From positions 1 to 39,105 of the forward strand of contig JBDRGZ010000068.1 in NCBI GenBank assembly GCA_043817345.1: DNA of 39,105 nt. The letters run 5' to 3'. The DNA is from Patescibacteria group bacterium. Its GTDB lineage: Bacteria > Patescibacteriota > Patescibacteriia > UBA2196. This document shows positions 2,332 through 37,841 of this stretch, in pieces (the first letter of the stretch is position 1; each line of letters begins with the position of its first letter). The position numbers and the translations under genes are program-made. The notes beneath the pieces were generated by a model. That model made no database searches, was not told where the DNA came from, and worked only from the letters and a program-made list of their open reading frames with translations.

Positions 2332-4053
2332 ATGAAAAAATTATCAATAAAAATAGTTGGACCAGCTGGGTTTGGTATTAAGGTTACAGGTATAACAATA
2401 GCTAAGGTATTTATGCGTTTAGGTTTAAATGTTTTTGCATATACAGAATACCCATCTTTAATTCGTGGAGGGCATAATACATATCAAATTGATCTATCTA
2501 AGGATAAGGTTCATTCTTCAAACCAGAAGTGTAATATTTTAATTGCTTTAACAAAAGAAGCTATTCAAAAAGAAAAAGAAAATATTGAACTAGGAGGTAT
2601 TGTTATCTGTGATAAATCAATTATTAATGAAGAAGATTTAAACCTAAGATCTATAAAAACCATAAAAGCTCCTTTGATAGAAAGTGCTAAATTTGCTGGA
2701 TCAGAGTTAATGAAAAATACAGTTGCTCTTGGAGTTTTGTTATCCCTTCTTGATCTATCTATTAAGAATTTAAATAATGTTTTAGCAGATATTTTTGCTA
2801 GTAAAAAAGAAGTGATTAAAGATAATAAAGTAGCGGCAAAAACAGGATATGATTGGATGGAACAATTTAAAAAGAAAGAGAATAGTGATTTTGATAAGTT
2901 AAGTAAAATAGTTTCTGTTTCTAAAAAAGGAAGTAATAATGTATTAATGACTGGTAATCAAGCTTGTGCAATGTCTGTGATAGCTTCTCAATGCCAAATG
3001 TATGTAGCTTATCCAATGACTCCTTCAACAGACATTTTACATATTCTTGAAGCTGAACAAAAAGAAACAGGAATGTTGATTCATCAACCAGAAGATGAGA
3101 TTTCTGGAATTCATGTAGCTTTAGGTTCTTCTTTTACAGGAGCTCGTTCAGCAGTAGGAACTTCTGGTGGAGGATTTGCTTTAATGAATGAGGGTTTTTC
3201 TTTAGCTGGGATGACAGAAACTCCTTTAGTTGTTTTTGAGGTTATGAGACCTGCTCCAGCTACAGGTAACCCTACTTGGTCAGATCAAGGTGATTTAGGA
3301 TATGTTGTTAATGCAGGACACGGTGAGTTTGCTAAAATTGTAATAACACCAGGAACACCAGAACAATCTTTTAATTTAGTACAGCATGCTTTTAATTTAG
3401 CAGATAAATATCAAACCCCTGTAGTAATATTATCAGACAAACATTTAGGAGAGTCTAGCTTTACAGTTAGTAAAGAGGTGTTTAATGAAGTAGATAAAAT
3501 AGATAGAGGAAAGATTGTAAAATCTGTTAAACAAGCACAAGAAATATTTATGCGTTACAAAGTAGAAAAAGATGGAATTTCAGCAAGAACAATTCCTGGA
3601 ATACAAAATGGAGAACATATTGCTAATTCAGATGAACATGACGAATATGGATATTCAGATGAATCAAGCAAAGTTAGAATCCAACAAATGGACAAAAGAA
3701 TGAAAAAATTAGATGAGATTAAAAAAGATATTCCTTTACCAAAAGTTTATGGTCCAAAAATTGCTTCAAAAACATTAGTTTGTTGGGGATCTAGTTTTGG
3801 AGCATGTAAGGACACTGTTGATAATAATAAGGATATTAATTTAATAAATTTTGAATATGTTTATCCAATGCCAAATAATTTAGATAAATTTTTAAAGAAA
3901 TTTAGGAAATTAATTTTAGTTGAACAAAATAAGACAGGACAGTTAGGAAAACTAATTAGACAAGAAACAGGTATTCAAATTAAAGATAAAATATTAAAAT
4001 ATGATTCAAGGCCTTTTTGGAGTGATGAGGTTTTGTCTTTATTGTCATCCTGA
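2332..4053 (+). CDS. 2-oxoacid:ferredoxin oxidoreductase, fused gamma-alpha subunit
   Basis: The N-terminal gamma-like domain has GPAGFGIKVTG...GGHNTYQI. The alpha domain has GNQACAMSVIASQCQMYVAYPMTPSTDIL and GTSGGGFALM. The stop codon TGA (4051-4053) lies inside repeat element 4043-4206. Confidence 0.85.
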   Translation: MKKLSIKIVGPAGFGIKVTGITIAKVFMRLGLNVFAYTEYPSLIRGGHNTYQIDLSKDKVHSSNQKCNILIALTKEAIQKEKENIELGGIVICDKSIINEEDLNLRSIKTIKAPLIESAKFAGSELMKNTVALGVLLSLLDLSIKNLNNVLADIFASKKEVIKDNKVAAKTGYDWMEQFKKKENSDFDKLSKIVSVSKKGSNNVLMTGNQACAMSVIASQCQMYVAYPMTPSTDILHILEAEQKETGMLIHQPEDEISGIHVALGSSFTGARSAVGTSGGGFALMNEGFSLAGMTETPLVVFEVMRPAPATGNPTWSDQGDLGYVVNAGHGEFAKIVITPGTPEQSFNLVQHAFNLADKYQTPVVILSDKHLGESSFTVSKEVFNEVDKIDRGKIVKSVKQAQEIFMRYKVEKDGISARTIPGIQNGEHIANSDEHDEYGYSDESSKVRIQQMDKRMKKLDEIKKDIPLPKVYGPKIASKTLVCWGSSFGACKDTVDNNKDINLINFEYVYPMPNNLDKFLKKFRKLILVEQNKTGQLGKLIRQETGIQIKDKILKYDSRPFWSDEVLSLLSS

Positions 4054-4206
4054 GCGACTTTTAAGGTTGTTAGGAGCCGAAGGATCTCATGTACACATTT
4101 TTCTAAATAGAATAATGAAACATAACTAGTATATTTTAATTCTTCTACACTTTAAAAATAAAAATTAAACAGATTCTTCTCCCGCTATCGCGGGATCAGA
4201 ATGACA
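4043..4206. repeat. Family-A composite palindromic element (two hairpin arms plus spacer)
   Basis: Left arm: TGTCATCCTGAGCGACTTTTAAGGTTGTTAGGAGCCGAAGGATCT. Right arm: CAGATTCTTCTCCCGCTATCGCGGGATCAGAATGACA. The termini are inverted (TGTCATCCTGA / TCAGAATGACA). Confidence 0.8.
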
Positions 4207-5059: not shown

Positions 5060-6800
5060 AAGGTGGTTATTAAAACCTAAATATCCGCAAGAATTTGCAG
5101 AAAAATTACCGGGCTATAATCCGGTAATTTTGCAATTACTTTATGATCGTGGTTTAGACACACATAAAAAAGTAGATGAGTTTTTAAATCCTGACTATAC
5201 TCAAGACATTTATGATCCTTTTTTGTTTAATGAAATGCAGAAAGCTGTTGATAGAATCAACAAAGCAGTTAAGAATGATGAAAAGATTTTAGTTTACGGA
5301 GACTATGATGCTGATGGTGTTACTTCTACTACACTTTTAGTAAAAACATTAGAAAAAATTAATGCAAAAAATATTGAAATACATATTCCGCATAGGCATT
5401 TGGATGGTTATGGAATGAATAAACAGGCGGTTCAAAACTTTGTTGATAATGGTATAAAATTAGTTATTACTGTTGATTGTGGAATAACAAATATTGAACA
5501 GATAGAATTATTAAAACAAAATAATATTGACACAATTGTTACAGATCACCATTTACAAGCAAAAGAATTACCAGATGCTTTTGCAATTATTAATCCATCA
5601 GTAGAAACAGAAAAATATCCTTTTAAAAAATTAGCTGGAGTAGGGGTTGCTTTTAAATTAGCTCAAGCTCTTTTTAAATCACAGAATGATTCAGAAGATT
5701 ACGAAGCTTTTGAAAAATGGCTTTTAGATGTAGTTACAATTGGGACGATTGGTGATGTAGCTCCCATTTTAGGTGAAAACAGAACTTTGGTTAAATATGG
5801 TTTAATGGTTTTAAATAAAACACCACGCAAAGGTCTAAGAGAATTAATTAGAGTTAGTTCTTTGTCTAATGGGCATGATCCAAGTCAGGAAATTCCTTTA
5901 GGTGAAGATATTTATGAATTAAATGTTAGAAATGTAGCTTGGCAGATTGTGCCACGCATAAATGCAGCTGGTAGAATAGATCATGCCAATTTAGCATACA
6001 CTTTATTAACCACAGAAGATGAAATGGAGGCAGTTGCTTTAGCACAAGATATACATCAAAAAAATTTAGAACGACAGAAAATAGCTGAAACTATGTTAAC
6101 TGAGGCAGAAGAATTAATTGGTAAAGTAACAGATGAAGATAAAATTTTAATTATTGCTAAAGAAGGCTGGCTAGAAGGTATAGTTGGTTTAGTTGCAGGG
6201 AAATTAAAAGATAGATATAACAGACCAATAATATTATTAAATAAAGATGGAGAAAACTATTCTGGTTCAGGTAGAAGTATTTCAGAATTTAATATTACAG
6301 AGGCTTTACAAGAATGTAGTGAATTGCTAGACAGATTTGGTGGACATGCTCAAGCCTGTGGTTTAGGTTTAACTGGAGAAAAGAATTTTAACGGGCTTAA
6401 GGATAAAATTAAATCAATTGCTAATGAAAAGTTAAAAGGTATTGAACTTGTACCAACAATAGAAATTGATGTAGAATTAAAAATGGAGGATTTAAATTGG
6501 GATCTTTGGGATGAAATAGAAAAATTTGAGCCTTTTGCAGAAGCTAACCCATTACCTTTATTTTTAATTAAAAATGTTAAGATAGAAGAAATGGATATAA
6601 TTGGAAAAAATAATAATACATTAAGATTTCAATTGTCTCAGAATAATGAAAAACAAAAAGCAATATCTTTTGGAAAAGTAGAGGAGTGGGGTGATAAAAT
6701 TAAGGTAGGGGATAATATAGATGTTGTTGTCGAGTTTGGTGTGAATGAATGGAATGGAAATAGGGAATTACAATTTAAAATTATTGATTGGAAGAAGTAG
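5046..6800 (+). CDS. recJ: Single-stranded-DNA-specific exonuclease RecJ
   Basis: DHH family motifs: YGDYDADGVTS, VDCGI, VTDHH, GGHAQACG. Confidence 0.9.
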   Translation: MSMSKRWLLKPKYPQEFAEKLPGYNPVILQLLYDRGLDTHKKVDEFLNPDYTQDIYDPFLFNEMQKAVDRINKAVKNDEKILVYGDYDADGVTSTTLLVKTLEKINAKNIEIHIPHRHLDGYGMNKQAVQNFVDNGIKLVITVDCGITNIEQIELLKQNNIDTIVTDHHLQAKELPDAFAIINPSVETEKYPFKKLAGVGVAFKLAQALFKSQNDSEDYEAFEKWLLDVVTIGTIGDVAPILGENRTLVKYGLMVLNKTPRKGLRELIRVSSLSNGHDPSQEIPLGEDIYELNVRNVAWQIVPRINAAGRIDHANLAYTLLTTEDEMEAVALAQDIHQKNLERQKIAETMLTEAEELIGKVTDEDKILIIAKEGWLEGIVGLVAGKLKDRYNRPIILLNKDGENYSGSGRSISEFNITEALQECSELLDRFGGHAQACGLGLTGEKNFNGLKDKIKSIANEKLKGIELVPTIEIDVELKMEDLNWDLWDEIEKFEPFAEANPLPLFLIKNVKIEEMDIIGKNNNTLRFQLSQNNEKQKAISFGKVEEWGDKIKVGDNIDVVVEFGVNEWNGNRELQFKIIDWKK

Positions 6801-6903
6801 TCATCCTGAGGAGGAGTCCCGATAGGGTGACGACGAAGGATCTGTTATAAAAATTACACAGATTCTTCGCTTTTAGTGACTATAAAAGTCGCTCAGAATG
6901 ACA
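6799..6903. repeat. Family-A composite palindromic element
   Basis: (A)GTCATCCTGAGGAGGAGTCCCGATAGGGTGACGACGAAGGATCTG, 14-nt spacer, then CAGATTCTTCGCTTTTAGTGACTATAAAAGTCGCTCAGAATGACA. It fills the recJ-rnhA gap. Confidence 0.85.
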
Positions 6904-8848: not shown

Positions 8849-9265
8849 ATGTCTATGTCATTAATAAAATGGACTCCAATGTCTTTAGATCCTTTCGATG
8901 ATTTTTTTGATTTTCCTTCCATGAGACCTGGAAATTTTACACCGGCCATGGATATCTGGCAAGATGAAGAAAATATTTATGCTGAATGTCCTTTAGCAGG
9001 TGTTGACCCTAAAAACGTTGAGGTATCAGTTGAAAATGATATTTTAACTGTCCAGGGCAAAACAGAACAAAAAAGTGAGGTTGAAGAAAAAGAATATTAC
9101 AGGAAAGAAGTTAGGTTTGGTAGTTTCCACCGTTCAGTAGCTTTACCAGCTGCAGTAAACAACGAACGCGTTTCAGCAGAATTTGAAAAAGGAGTTTTAA
9201 AGATTACTTTACCAAAAGAAGATAGAGTTAAACCTAAAAAAATTGATGTAAAGATTAAATCTTAA
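8849..9265 (+). CDS. Small heat-shock protein (Hsp20/alpha-crystallin family)
   Basis: Alpha-crystallin domain: PAMDIWQDEENIYAECPLAGVDPKNVEVSVENDILTVQG...FGSFHRSVALP...GVLKITLPK. Confidence 0.9.
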   Translation: MSMSLIKWTPMSLDPFDDFFDFPSMRPGNFTPAMDIWQDEENIYAECPLAGVDPKNVEVSVENDILTVQGKTEQKSEVEEKEYYRKEVRFGSFHRSVALPAAVNNERVSAEFEKGVLKITLPKEDRVKPKKIDVKIKS

Positions 9266-14325: not shown

Positions 14326-14358
14326 TGTCATCCTGAGGAGCTTGCGACGAAGGATCTG
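14326..14358. repeat. Family-A single arm
   Basis: TGTCATCCTGAGGAGCTTGCGACGAAGGATCTG, between two convergent genes. Confidence 0.75.
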
Positions 14359-17864: not shown

Positions 17865-19313
17865 ATGTCAACCTTCTTAAACAAAAACATATTTAAACTA
17901 ACTTTTCTGTTTGTAATTTTAACAGAGCTTTTTTCGTTTTTTGGCTGGTTATTACCAGAATTTGGGTATTTGTGTTTCTTTGCAATAATGCTTTTAACTT
18001 TAGTTTTAAGTATAAAAAGGCTTGAATATGGAATATATATTCTTTTAGCAGAGTTGTTCATTGGTTCTAAAGGATATCTATTTAGTTTAGATATTGGAGA
18101 TTCTGCTATTTCTTTAAGAATGGGTTTGTTTTTGATTGTTATGGCTGTTTTTTTTATGAATGTCATCCTGAAAAGGAGGCCCGATAGGGCGACGATGAAG
18201 GATCTGTTTAATAAAAAATTAAAACAGATTCTTCGTCGCCACGAAGTGTCGTGGCTTCTCAGAATGACATCTTTATGGCTAGTAATAATATGGGGGTTTG
18301 TTTGGGGACTGATTCAGGGTAACAACTTTGGAAATGTATTTTTAGATTTTAATAATTGGGTATATTTCCTTTTAGTATTTCCAATTTTTCAAATTGTTAA
18401 GAACAATGATAATTTTGTTAAAAATATTTTATCTGTTTTAACAGCCTCTGTTGTATGGATAGGTATAAAATCCCTCGTCTTGCTATATATCTTCTCTCAT
18501 GAGCTCTCCTGGGCTTTGCCAGAGGCATATAAGTGGGTGAGAGACACTTTAGTAGGTGAAATAACTTTTGCAGGGAATGGATTTTGGAGGGTATTTATTC
18601 AATCCCAAGTATATAGTTTAATTTTGTTTTTTATCTTACTGGGCATTAAAGATATTAAAAGATTTTTCTTTCATCATATCTTGCTTTTAATATCTTTAAT
18701 CACAATCATATTAAGTTGGTCAAGAAGTTTTTGGGTTGGTTTGGTTGTTGGTGTTGGTATTTATCTAATATATCTAATTATTCAAAAAATAAAGTTTTTG
18801 AGTTTTTTAAAGATTTCTGGTAAGTTAATACTTATTACCCTAATATCTTTTGGTTTGATTCTCTGCGTCATATATTTACCTCCAAAAGCTGATATGGGTA
18901 ATTTAGCAGATATCTTTGGCAAGAGGTTAACTCAAGGTGAAGCTGCTTCATCTTCACGTATTAATCAATTAAAGCCTTTAATTAAAGAAATTGGTGAACA
19001 TCCAGTAATTGGTTCTGGTTTTGGAACAACTATTACATATTTATCTGATGATCCAAGGATTTTAGGGGACTATACAACATATGCTTTTGAGTGGGGATAT
19101 TTAGACATGATATTAAAATTTGGCATATTAGGTACTTTAATATATCTAATTTTAATATTTAAAATCTTGAAGAAGCTGTTTAATATAAACTTAGGATTTG
19201 CTTTAGCTTTGATCGCTTTGTTAATTGTTAATATATTCAGTCCATATTTAAATCATCCATTAGGAATTGGGTTTGTAATATTATGTAGCTCTATTGTTTA
19301 TGCAAAAGAATGA
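17865..19313 (+). CDS. O-antigen ligase/polymerase-like polytopic membrane protein carrying an in-frame repeat insertion
   Basis: About 10 TM segments with a WSRSFWVG motif (Wzy_C-like). Residues VILKRRPDRATMKDLFNKKLKQILRRHEVSWLLRMT are encoded by a family-A element. Confidence 0.65.
   Translation: MSTFLNKNIFKLTFLFVILTELFSFFGWLLPEFGYLCFFAIMLLTLVLSIKRLEYGIYILLAELFIGSKGYLFSLDIGDSAISLRMGLFLIVMAVFFMNVILKRRPDRATMKDLFNKKLKQILRRHEVSWLLRMTSLWLVIIWGFVWGLIQGNNFGNVFLDFNNWVYFLLVFPIFQIVKNNDNFVKNILSVLTASVVWIGIKSLVLLYIFSHELSWALPEAYKWVRDTLVGEITFAGNGFWRVFIQSQVYSLILFFILLGIKDIKRFFFHHILLLISLITIILSWSRSFWVGLVVGVGIYLIYLIIQKIKFLSFLKISGKLILITLISFGLILCVIYLPPKADMGNLADIFGKRLTQGEAASSSRINQLKPLIKEIGEHPVIGSGFGTTITYLSDDPRILGDYTTYAFEWGYLDMILKFGILGTLIYLILIFKILKKLFNINLGFALALIALLIVNIFSPYLNHPLGIGFVILCSSIVYAKE
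18161..18269. repeat. Family-A composite element inside a CDS (read through, no stop)
   Basis: TGTCATCCTGAAAAGGAGGCCCGATAGGGCGACGATGAAGGATCTG, spacer, then CAGATTCTTCGTCGCCACGAAGTGTCGTGGCTTCTCAGAATGACA. The architecture matches 6799-6903. Confidence 0.85.
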
Positions 19314-25387: not shown

Positions 25388-25410
25388 GCTGCTTTAAATG
25401 CAGTTTTTTT
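25388..25410 (+). terminator. Intrinsic terminator
   Basis: AGCTGC-TTTAAAT-GCAGTT stem followed by a T8 run. Confidence 0.6.
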
Positions 25411-25438
25411 TGACTAAATGTCCATAAAATTATAGAAT
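25410..25438 (+). promoter_or_regulatory. Promoter of proS
   Basis: TTGACT (25410-25415), 17-nt spacer, TAGAAT (25433-25438). Confidence 0.55.
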
Positions 25439-25463
25439 TAAGGAGATTAAATAAATAAAATAT

Positions 25464-37691: not shown

Positions 37692-37841
37692 TGTCATCCT
37701 GAGCGACTTTTAAGGTCGCTAGGAGCCGAAGGATCTGTTTTTTTGTAAAAACTTTCTCTTTCTGTTATCCTGAACTTGTTTCAGGATAAAACAAATTAGA
37801 GAAATAAGAATGTTAAATCCCGAAATAAATTCGGGATGACA
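37692..37841. repeat. Family-A composite element (variant with three hairpins)
   Basis: TGTCATCCTGAGCGACTTTTAAGGTCGCTAGGAGCCGAAGGATCTG, then TTATCCTGAA-CTTGT-TTCAGGATAA (perfect 10-bp stem), then TCCCGAA-ATAAA-TTCGGGATGACA. The termini GTCATCC/GGATGAC are inverted. Confidence 0.8.

Follow-up and report, generated by a model that had tools for sequence, protein, structure and literature searches.

A gene-less hairpin cassette that probably landed in frame in a Wzy_C membrane protein gene of a Patescibacteria genome

Introduction

How does a palindromic repeat of about 108 nt come to lie within an apparently intact gene, and what becomes of the protein that has to accommodate it? This question is raised by a 39,105-nt stretch of DNA from a Patescibacteria group bacterium (contig JBDRGZ010000068.1 of assembly GCA_043817345.1), which we call the window and whose positions serve as coordinates throughout. 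The element in question occupies 18161-18269 on the plus strand and is a miniature that lies in frame and is built as an inverted dimer from hairpin units with a tag (TGTC...GACA), encoding VILKRR...LLRMT, as indicated by its sequence, its predicted fold and its absence from the closest orthologues. Its host, at 17865-19313 on the plus strand, is a gene for a 482-residue polytopic membrane protein of the Wzy_C/O-antigen-ligase family, an assignment that draws on the open reading frame (ORF), Pfam, synteny, an AlphaFold model and a fold match in the PDB. We think it probable that the 108-nt segment is a gene-less miniature cassette that landed in a loop of the Wzy_C protein with the reading frame kept, and that it is translated and tolerated. 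The source genome (G000) is a metagenome-assembled genome (MAG) of 78 contigs and 707 kb with 30.6% GC, and its contigs are denoted by C-numbers. It was compared with a genome of the same genus (G001), in which contig C17 is syntenic with the window, and the Wzy_C protein was compared with a set of 119 homologues, whose members carry labels such as P0002.

Anatomy of the element and of its host protein

The peptide VILKRRPDRATMKDLFNKKLKQILRRHEVSWLLRMT is encoded at 18162-18269 inside an intact 482-codon ORF, with no stop codon. A first-pass annotation of the window had described a palindromic element of ~108 nt, in frame and free of stops in ORF 17865-19313, between two hydrophobic segments, and this description holds, the segments being transmembrane helices 4 and 5 (TM4 and TM5). 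At the DNA level, the element consists of two inverted hairpin units of ~43 nt with the design TGTC-AT-CCTGAG...CGAAGG-AT-C, separated by an AT-rich palindromic spacer of a type that is also present in other dimers. The left unit (18162-18204, plus strand) is composed of GTCATCCTGAA and GACGATGAAGGATC enclosing GCCCGATAGGGC, and can equally be divided into GTCATCCTGAA, an inner mini-hairpin, GCCC-GATA-GGGC, at 18179-18190 on the same strand, and CGACGATGAAGGATC; the right unit (18227-18268, minus strand) is composed of GTCATTCTGAGAA and GACGAAGAATC enclosing GCCACGACACTTCGTGGC, with the inner hairpin GCCACGA CACT TCGTGGC. A central stem-loop (18193-18238, plus strand), built from the AT-rich spacer and the GAAGRATCTGTTT tail on either side of it, encodes ...TMKDLFNKKLKQILRR... 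within the peptide. When folded as a single strand, 18161-18269 is predicted to adopt a four-way junction in which the outer stem, a pair of small GC hairpins and the long central stem meet, with z-scores relative to shuffled sequences of -7.1 as DNA and -8.1/-9.7 as RNA. The element opens with tGTC-AT-CCTGA... at 18161 and its mirror lies at 18269; the same tag and AT stem start are found in most of the 38 dimers. Genome-wide, we delimited 93 elements in G000. Units of this family, which we term family A, are 25-46 nt long and have a variable interior of 5-25 nt, a CTG tail and a closing stem of 5 bp plus tandem G.A pairs, and the interior often forms a hairpin of its own.

Searching the window against Rfam at gathering thresholds returned tRNAs only, and a permissive scan of the insert returned only sub-threshold look-alikes of microRNA hairpins. 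No intrinsic terminator was found on the coding (plus) strand in the gene or the insert. Inspection ruled out a hammerhead-like interpretation of CTGAGGAG...CGAA, given that position 15.1 is G and that the core is missing from the major subtype of the repeat.

The host protein matches Pfam family PF04932 (Wzy_C) over residues 273-428 (E = 1.6e-12; 47.9 bits, gathering cut-off 31.7). Genes for GT2 glycosyltransferases neighbour the Wzy_C gene, and the gene order cysS-GT2-Wzy_C-GT2-GT2-holB is common to the orthologous contigs. An AlphaFold model that took the 119 homologues as input has a pLDDT of 92.9 and a pTM of 0.93, the only weak stretch being residues ~101-130 (pLDDT 64-70), which correspond to the insert; in this model TM4 extends across V100-L102 and TM5 starts at 125, with a short helix over residues 111-122 between them. 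When the PDB was searched with a sequence profile of the host protein nothing was found, and a fold search of the same database gave WaaL (7TPG_B) as the top match, with a probability of 1.00 and a TM-score of 0.44-0.51. We assign the protein to the Wzy_C family, with a predicted polytopic, WaaL-like fold and a large conserved loop that is presumably extracytoplasmic. In WaaL and Wzy, the large conserved loop is extracytoplasmic, and we take residues 338-410 as the reference here. Helix parity from the N-terminus relative to this loop, together with the positive-inside rule, suggests that the TM4-TM5 loop holding the insert is cytoplasmic. The net charge of the insert is about +8, that of the native loop about +3. 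The insert is most likely translated as a strongly basic segment of 36-37 residues in which, according to the AlphaFold model, VIL would lengthen TM4, SWLLRMT would lengthen TM5, and the middle would form a short helix.

Absence of the insert from the closest orthologues

Which of the two states is the older one is best judged from P0002, P0003 and P0004, the closest orthologues of the window protein, which are syntenic and 77-78% identical to it. These proteins carry SNLKGLKILESLKSTKIFY at the insert position, in an AT-rich loop of 33 residues that lacks any repeat signature, and the GC content of the loop DNA is 0.22-0.25 in their genes compared to 0.41 in the window. G001 carries the repeat-free allele and aligns collinearly with the window for more than 20 kb, at ~84% nucleotide identity. 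Moreover, a protein tree built with the loop columns masked places the window protein and P0002-P0004 in one clade with an SH-aLRT support of 100. The repeat-free loop is homologous to the loops of distant orthologues, to which the motif ...LK.FKF.K.Y... is common, and the inner hairpins of the window element are unlike those of insert-bearing orthologues at the same loop. Because the window protein is nested with repeat-free orthologues and their native loop is homologous to that of distant ones, the sequence comparison shows that the insert-bearing state in the window is derived, and the landing would then have taken place after the split from the nearest known relatives.

An insertion would have been hard to maintain had repeat-free orthologues possessed the same 36 residues, as the first-pass annotation pointed out; the closest orthologues have a different, native loop instead, and the alignment that it proposed shows the insert to be absent from P0002-P0004 and G001. 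Its statement that the insert adds 36 residues needs correction, however, in that ~19 native residues (~57 nt) are replaced by 37 when the protein is compared with its closest orthologues, giving a net gain of only 18 residues (54 nt). In the Wzy_C gene, ~57 nt of the native TM4-TM5 loop gave way to one short dimer that landed there, and the reading frame was kept because the sequence grew by a net +54 nt and the dimer is free of stop codons in that frame. As a separate observation, the native loop DNA of the closest orthologue in G001, AGAATCTTTAAAATCCACAAAGATTTTC, is itself palindromic and resembles the central stem of family A (GAAGAATCTGTTT...AAACAGATTCTTC; compare window 18193-18238). This likeness could be due to chance in AT-rich lysine codons or could reflect microhomology that guided the replacement.

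A GIY-YIG hairpin cassette and its gene-less derivatives

The likely parent of the element lies in the same genome. Contig C62 (8829-9242; 414 bp) carries an intact 104-residue ORF (8881-9192, minus strand) between two inverted family-A arms, the one such full-length element in G000, and the only domain of this ORF is PF01541 (GIY-YIG; E = 1.7e-11). Dimers of 152-200 bp (C60:8905-9104, C51 and C42) retain only the last 20-30 codons of the nuclease ORF, with stop codons, and the common dimers of 57-108 bp bear no trace of the nuclease gene. The left arm of the copy in the Wzy_C gene is ~90% identical over 47-48 nt to the arm of C62:8829-9242, to C60:8905 and to window position 6800; relative to all other G000 copies the insert shows 85-91% identity, with no exact duplicate. 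The 108-nt segment is a gene-less miniature of this small GIY-YIG hairpin cassette. In addition, two 94-bp dimers in G000 are 100% identical even though their flanks are unrelated, and the dimer has therefore been copied recently as a unit.

By analogy with SsnA of Neisseria, the nuclease might recognise the folded hairpin in single-stranded DNA (ssDNA), introduce a nick immediately 5' of the tag at either end and thereby mobilise the element. The GIY-YIG (Ssn-like) cassette is thus a concrete candidate for a mobility mechanism that the first-pass annotation had called unclear. The 104-residue nuclease gave no specific match in a search of NCBIfam, and a PDB search for related structures returned none. 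A second GIY-YIG gene in G000 (C70:17856-18056) encodes a YhbQ-like paralogue without flanking repeats and is not part of the system. Mobilisation by a RAYT or IS200/IS605 transposase was considered and rejected: the best PF01797 match in G000 scores 15.7 bits against a cut-off of 23 and lies in an open frame of 63 residues, and there is no TnpB. A search of G000 for DUF559 (Vsr-like) proteins likewise found none.

Expansion in the genome and integrity of the host genes

The extent of the repeat family was assessed with the head of its units. GTCATYCTGAG, with one mismatch permitted, occurs 8 times in the window when 0.6 occurrences are expected, and the 11-mer GTCATYCTGAR occurs 108 times in G000, the reversed motif, used as a control, being found 0 times. 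With 108 heads in G000, 3 in the same-genus genome G001 and up to 49 within the family, the repeat family has undergone a burst in the G000 lineage; the genome-wide census of copies that had been called for thus comprises 108 heads and 93 elements. The triplets AAT...ATT are conserved just outside the heads and, because they are inverted, form part of the element ends.

Seven or eight of the G000 elements lie within genes, which encode this Wzy_C protein, a second Wzy_C protein, a Mur ligase, a ValS-like aminoacyl-tRNA synthetase, a Hint-domain protein and others, and all of them are stop-free in the host frame. Only ~15% of the copy-by-frame combinations among short dimers are stop-free, and no gene split by an element was found among the G000 elements. 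That all intragenic copies are open when so few frames are fits filtering at the level of translation. The window protein itself keeps all 30 columns that are invariant across the 119 homologues, and the pairwise ratio of nonsynonymous to synonymous substitution rates (dN/dS) between its gene and those of P0002, P0003 and P0004 is 0.14-0.18, compared to 0.15 for the insert-free pair P0002/P0003, although such ratios average over both lineages. The earlier proposal of a tolerated insertion into a cytoplasmic loop therefore gains support from the intact ORF, the invariant columns and the unchanged dN/dS, with the side of the membrane taken from the model. On this comparative evidence the insert is probably tolerated in the host protein, perhaps because it faces the cytoplasm, away from the conserved extracytoplasmic catalytic loops.

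Repeated colonisation of the TM4-TM5 loop

The window protein is not the only member of its family to have acquired such a segment. Related, GC-richer inserts of the tagged-hairpin type are found in the TM4-TM5 loop of ~30 of the 119 orthologues, and mapping of the insert states on the tree requires at least 19 changes, at least 12 of which are forced by well-supported branches. Near-identical insert-free sisters of insert-bearing proteins exist in the pairs P0042/P0055 and P0056/P0089. We inspected the DNA of nine loop inserts (window, P0006, P0008, P0009, P0010, P0014, P0028, P0042 and P0056), all of which follow one plan, in most cases as inverted dimers: a tag (TGTC or GTC) is followed by AT and a closing stem, then by an interior that varies, the complement of the stem and ATC. 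The nine are not alike in closing stem and frame, and P0028 contains a classical NTS-like pair. In seven orthologues (V/F)IL begins at the same alignment column, and in five of these seven the dimer covers the loop fully from TM4 to TM5. This shared column is explained in part by the fact that AAT...ATT belongs to the element ends and by the stop codons (TAA or TAG) of the major subtype in that frame.

Other loops of the family are not free of foreign-looking sequence. In P0005-P0013, in-frame low-complexity or repeat-like inserts are seen at alignment columns ~347-372, 411-427 and 574-608, for example ISNFQFPISKQ...LLITNY and CRDVIYDVSGDAMNRVST, and these look like other repeat families that are translated. 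The second Wzy_C gene of G000, on C58, contains one single hairpin in frame that is of the type of a second repeat family, family B, described below.

Distribution and relation to known systems

Outside G000, the unit GTCATCCTGAG...CGAAGGATCT occurs at 120 or more loci, often as inverted pairs, in Chloroflexota, Acidobacteriota, Bacillota, Bacteroidota, Omnitrophota, Planctomycetota, Proteobacteria, Cyanobacteria and several Patescibacteria. Five of these loci hold a homologue of the nuclease (42-52% identity) directly between or beside the heads, and the unit-nuclease-unit layout is seen in Omnitrophota, Bacteroidota and Proteobacteria. In relatives within the Patescibacteria, nuclease homologues (49-66% identity) are flanked by arms with closing stems ATCCT/AGGAT, ATCCC/GGGAT and ATTCC/GGAAT, and these compensatory, two-sided changes support the hairpin as a selected feature. 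A close homologue of the nuclease is present in 10 of the 12 genomes with at least 10 heads but in only 11 of the 29 with fewer.

With respect to systems that have been described, the element works like the Rickettsia palindromic elements (RPEs) and the SRM dimers, and we file it as a known kind in a new phylum because its architecture fits, even though the published SRM pattern and the stem and loop dimensions given in 2013 are not matched. The RPEs of Ogata et al. (2000/2002) are, as summarised in later work, multi-copy repeats of which some lie in frame in genes (PMC3733652, PMC10969869). Family A resembles them as a short, many-copy palindrome of which a fraction lies in frame in probably working genes, adding 20-50 residues in permissive regions, and in that dimers are common and no gene is carried; it has stop-free in-frame copies and is absent from orthologues, as expected for this class. 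It differs from the RPEs in belonging to Patescibacteria and to another sequence family, in replacing a native loop of a polytopic membrane protein and in having hit one loop repeatedly across a whole orthologue family.

A second class, the CGTC-tagged repetitive extragenic palindromes (REPs) of Di Nocera, De Gregorio and Rocco (2013), bears a tag that is often TGTC and stems that start with AT, occurs mostly as dimers, includes dRS3 of Neisseria and RPE-4 and RPE-6 of Rickettsia, has known intragenic copies and, according to its authors, lacks a dedicated transposase (PMC3733652). The unpaired CGTC/TGTC end tag, the AT-starting stem, the short unpaired tail, the prevalence of inverted dimers and the intragenic units are features in common with family A, whereas the 8-9-bp stems, 4-5-nt loops and CCA tail of those repeats are not found in it.

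A third system is that of Chenal et al. (2025, Nat Commun), in which small GIY-YIG proteins (Ssn, cd10448) are flanked by SRM/NTS hairpins across phyla; four Ssn proteins cut only ssDNA beside their own hairpin, and the NTS-ssnA-NTS arrangement resembles an insertion sequence whose mobility is put forward there as a hypothesis, with NTS rarely located in genes (2%) (PMC11893778). The likeness extends to a single-domain GIY-YIG protein of ~94-104 residues, inverted hairpins of 20-50 nt on both sides that start with GTCAT and end with ATC, hundreds of orphan repeats in some genomes, and a linked occurrence of enzyme and repeat. In contrast to that system, the copies seen here form a series of decay that leads from the full cassette to the miniature dimer, identical dimers are found at unrelated loci, and the 104-residue nuclease, unlike Ssn, is known from its gene alone. 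Three other repeats in G000 pass the SRM pattern, compared to 0 in the reversed control. These repeats, TGTCATCCCGTGCTTGAYACGGGATCCAG, are located on C18, at C19:9730 and at C23:6590, each with an inverted partner, and a nuclease gene was not seen next to them.

Two further classes share parts of this architecture. As in REPIN/BIME-RAYT systems, inverted doublets form a long hairpin and an enzyme proposed to act on hairpins in ssDNA comes from a single-copy gene between repeats, but the tag is TGTC rather than GTAG, the linked gene encodes a GIY-YIG nuclease, and there is neither a Y1 transposase above threshold nor TnpB. Bacterial MITEs (miniature transposable elements with inverted repeats), such as the Correia elements of Neisseria and the QMITEs of Coxiella (PMC5896051, PMC10969869), are gene-less derivatives by internal deletion with inverted ends, some of them read through in genes. 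A deletion series with the same ends (414 bp with the intact gene, 152-200 bp with C-terminal remnants, 57-108 bp with no gene) is what defines such elements and is found here; unlike MITEs, however, family A has no parent with a DDE transposase and no visible target-site duplication, and its ends are structured hairpins. A topic search of the literature found no report on in-frame palindromic repeats in the candidate phyla radiation (CPR), and searches with sequence strings and translated peptides returned nothing relevant.

Weighing of alternative explanations

Several observations fit poorly with the landing of a translated and tolerated miniature cassette. The event was not a clean insertion, since ~19 native residues are missing at the one empty site examined (G001), and the flanks of the 38 dimers show no visible target-site duplication. 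The hairpin within the mRNA amounts to -53 kcal/mol and could impede expression, and a very recent loss of function would still be compatible with the averaged dN/dS. Independent random insertion also poorly explains why (V/F)IL begins at an identical alignment column in seven orthologues. Finally, the units of family A fail the SRM pattern HGTCWYN(0-2)YYVSBRHN(0-5)WNVSBRGN(0-2)RNCYNB, as do those of family B.

The shared column, the shared frame, the complete coverage of the loop in five of the seven orthologues and the fact that all seven belong to the GAGGAG...CGACGAAGGATC subtype might be read as signs of an ancient insert, which entered the gene once in the ancestor of a Wzy_C clade, was kept in the window protein, P0009, P0012, P0014, P0035 and others, and was lost or eroded in P0002-P0004, P0005 and P0007. 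We regard this as unlikely. The window protein is nested among three insert-free sequences with a support of 100, the label has to change 9 times on the tree (5 of these changes being forced), and homology links the empty loops to the native loops found in distant orthologues. Moreover, the inner hairpins of the window element, P0009 and P0014 are unrelated, the window arm is ~90% identical to arms in its own genome, sisters such as P0035/P0036 have inserts at different sites and in different frames, and the subtype bias is more simply explained by the TAA or TAG that the major subtype carries in this frame. To about the same small degree we allow for an inactivated or impaired gene, that is, an allele that became a pseudogene recently, or whose product suffers from the loss of the native loop, and in which stops have yet to accumulate. 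Such an outcome would be in keeping with the disappearance of the native 19-residue loop and the strong hairpin in the mRNA, and the second Wzy_C paralogue, on C58, could compensate for it. Nevertheless, the ORF has stayed intact over its 482 codons, in a genome of 31% GC that readily gives rise to stops, dN/dS equals that of the insert-free pair and every invariant residue is kept; many orthologues with comparable or larger inserts in the same loop are otherwise conserved, and all intragenic copies in G000 are open in the host frame.

Much less probable, in our judgement, is co-option, in which the basic segment, or the four-way junction as RNA or DNA, would have a role of its own, such as that of a functional loop on the cytoplasmic side or of a structure that regulates the glycan gene cluster. 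The element does fully substitute the native basic loop in the window protein and in four other orthologues, AlphaFold places the insert ends as extensions of TM4 and TM5, and host roles have been suggested for such repeats in Neisseria (PMC11893778); on the other hand, pLDDT is lowest in the insert, the insert sequences are not conserved between orthologues, and the same elements lie in unrelated proteins and in intergenic DNA. An assembly artefact, in which a metagenome assembler mis-threaded a repeat into the gene, is the least credible of these explanations and can be almost disregarded. It would draw on the fragmentation of the MAG into 78 contigs, several of which terminate in these repeats, but both flanks are collinear with the G001 contig over more than 20 kb, the frame is kept, the insert is a diverged copy (85-91%) and not an exact copy of another locus, and comparable inserts are present in the same loop in independent assemblies of other species.

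Implications

The landing of a gene-less cassette in the Wzy_C gene would mean that proteins of the ultra-small Patescibacteria, too, are shaped by selfish repeats in frame, for which Rickettsia and Wolbachia are the best-known examples, and that this happens on a large scale, one cytoplasmic loop of one membrane enzyme having been colonised at least 12 times. It would also tie translated repeats to a concrete parent, a cassette of ~400 bp that carries only an Ssn-like GIY-YIG nuclease. The published suggestion of cassette mobility would thereby become testable with a defined enzyme-substrate pair, and a possible explanation is offered for the CGTC-type REPs, which were reported in 2013 to be without a dedicated enzyme. 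Pipelines for annotation should be prepared for inserts of this kind in proteins of the CPR, and structure and topology prediction should treat them as dispensable loops.

A broader proposal is made much more tentatively, as we consider it more doubtful than probable. In this proposal the dimers and the 104-residue gene would form a pair of non-autonomous and autonomous elements, mobile without a transposase and driven by a structure-specific ssDNA nuclease, and the landings would, in addition, target a feature at the end of TM4 in the Wzy_C family. If so, targeted landing would explain both the (V/F)IL column shared by seven orthologues and the replacement of the native loop, and the cytoplasmic loop of Wzy_C would be subject to ongoing turnover across the Patescibacteria.

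Further copies and minor observations

The first-pass annotation listed three intergenic two-arm copies of family A in the window (4043-4206, 6799-6903 and 37692-37841), and all three exist, with qualifications for two of them. The plus-strand copy at 4043-4206 is an intergenic dimer with a long AT-rich spacer, of which the right arm has diverged. The one at 37692-37841 (plus strand) is a hybrid that joins a family-A left arm, an internal hairpin and a right hairpin of family-B type ending in GGGATGACA. The dimer at 6799-6903 (plus strand) conforms to the description, including the stop codon in its spacer, a TAA in the GTC ATC CTG frame. It exactly fills the gap between the stop of one gene and the start of the next: the TAG of the upstream gene overlaps the first base of the element, and the ATG of the downstream RNase-H-like gene lies 3 nt past its end. 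A single short unit, GTCATCCTGAGGAGCTTGCGACGAAGGATC, with a partial partner is located at 14327-14356 (plus strand), in a region that is not alignable to a repeat in G001.

Elements elsewhere in the genome adjoin or enter genes in comparable ways. At C41:13063-13169 and C41:22650-22743 the upstream genes end ...MSF* in the head of the element (ATG TCA TTC TGA), so that the elements supply the last codons and the TGA stop of these genes, and the next gene begins right after the other end. A 1650-codon ORF on C27 contains two single units in frame (~551-576 and ~1124-1169), one of them inside a Hint/intein-like segment (CVTGDTLLP...). Family B, which reads GTCATCCTGAACTTGTTTCAGGAT...ATCCCGAAATAAATTCGGGATGAC, is present at ~15 sites in G000 (for example C5:5899-5974, C34:1687-1762 and C76:1591-1666) and measures 76 nt throughout; its GTCAT tag is that of family A, but it possesses two unlike terminal hairpins.

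The window and C17 of G001 also differ in content. At three places of the window, 25410-26880, 28253-28284 and 28519-28533, the difference from C17 amounts to 0.4-2 kb. In addition, a 110-nt insert inside tRNA-Thr at 31127-31236 is absent from the orthologous site of G001, where the junction 31126|31237 aligns to C17 20354|20355.

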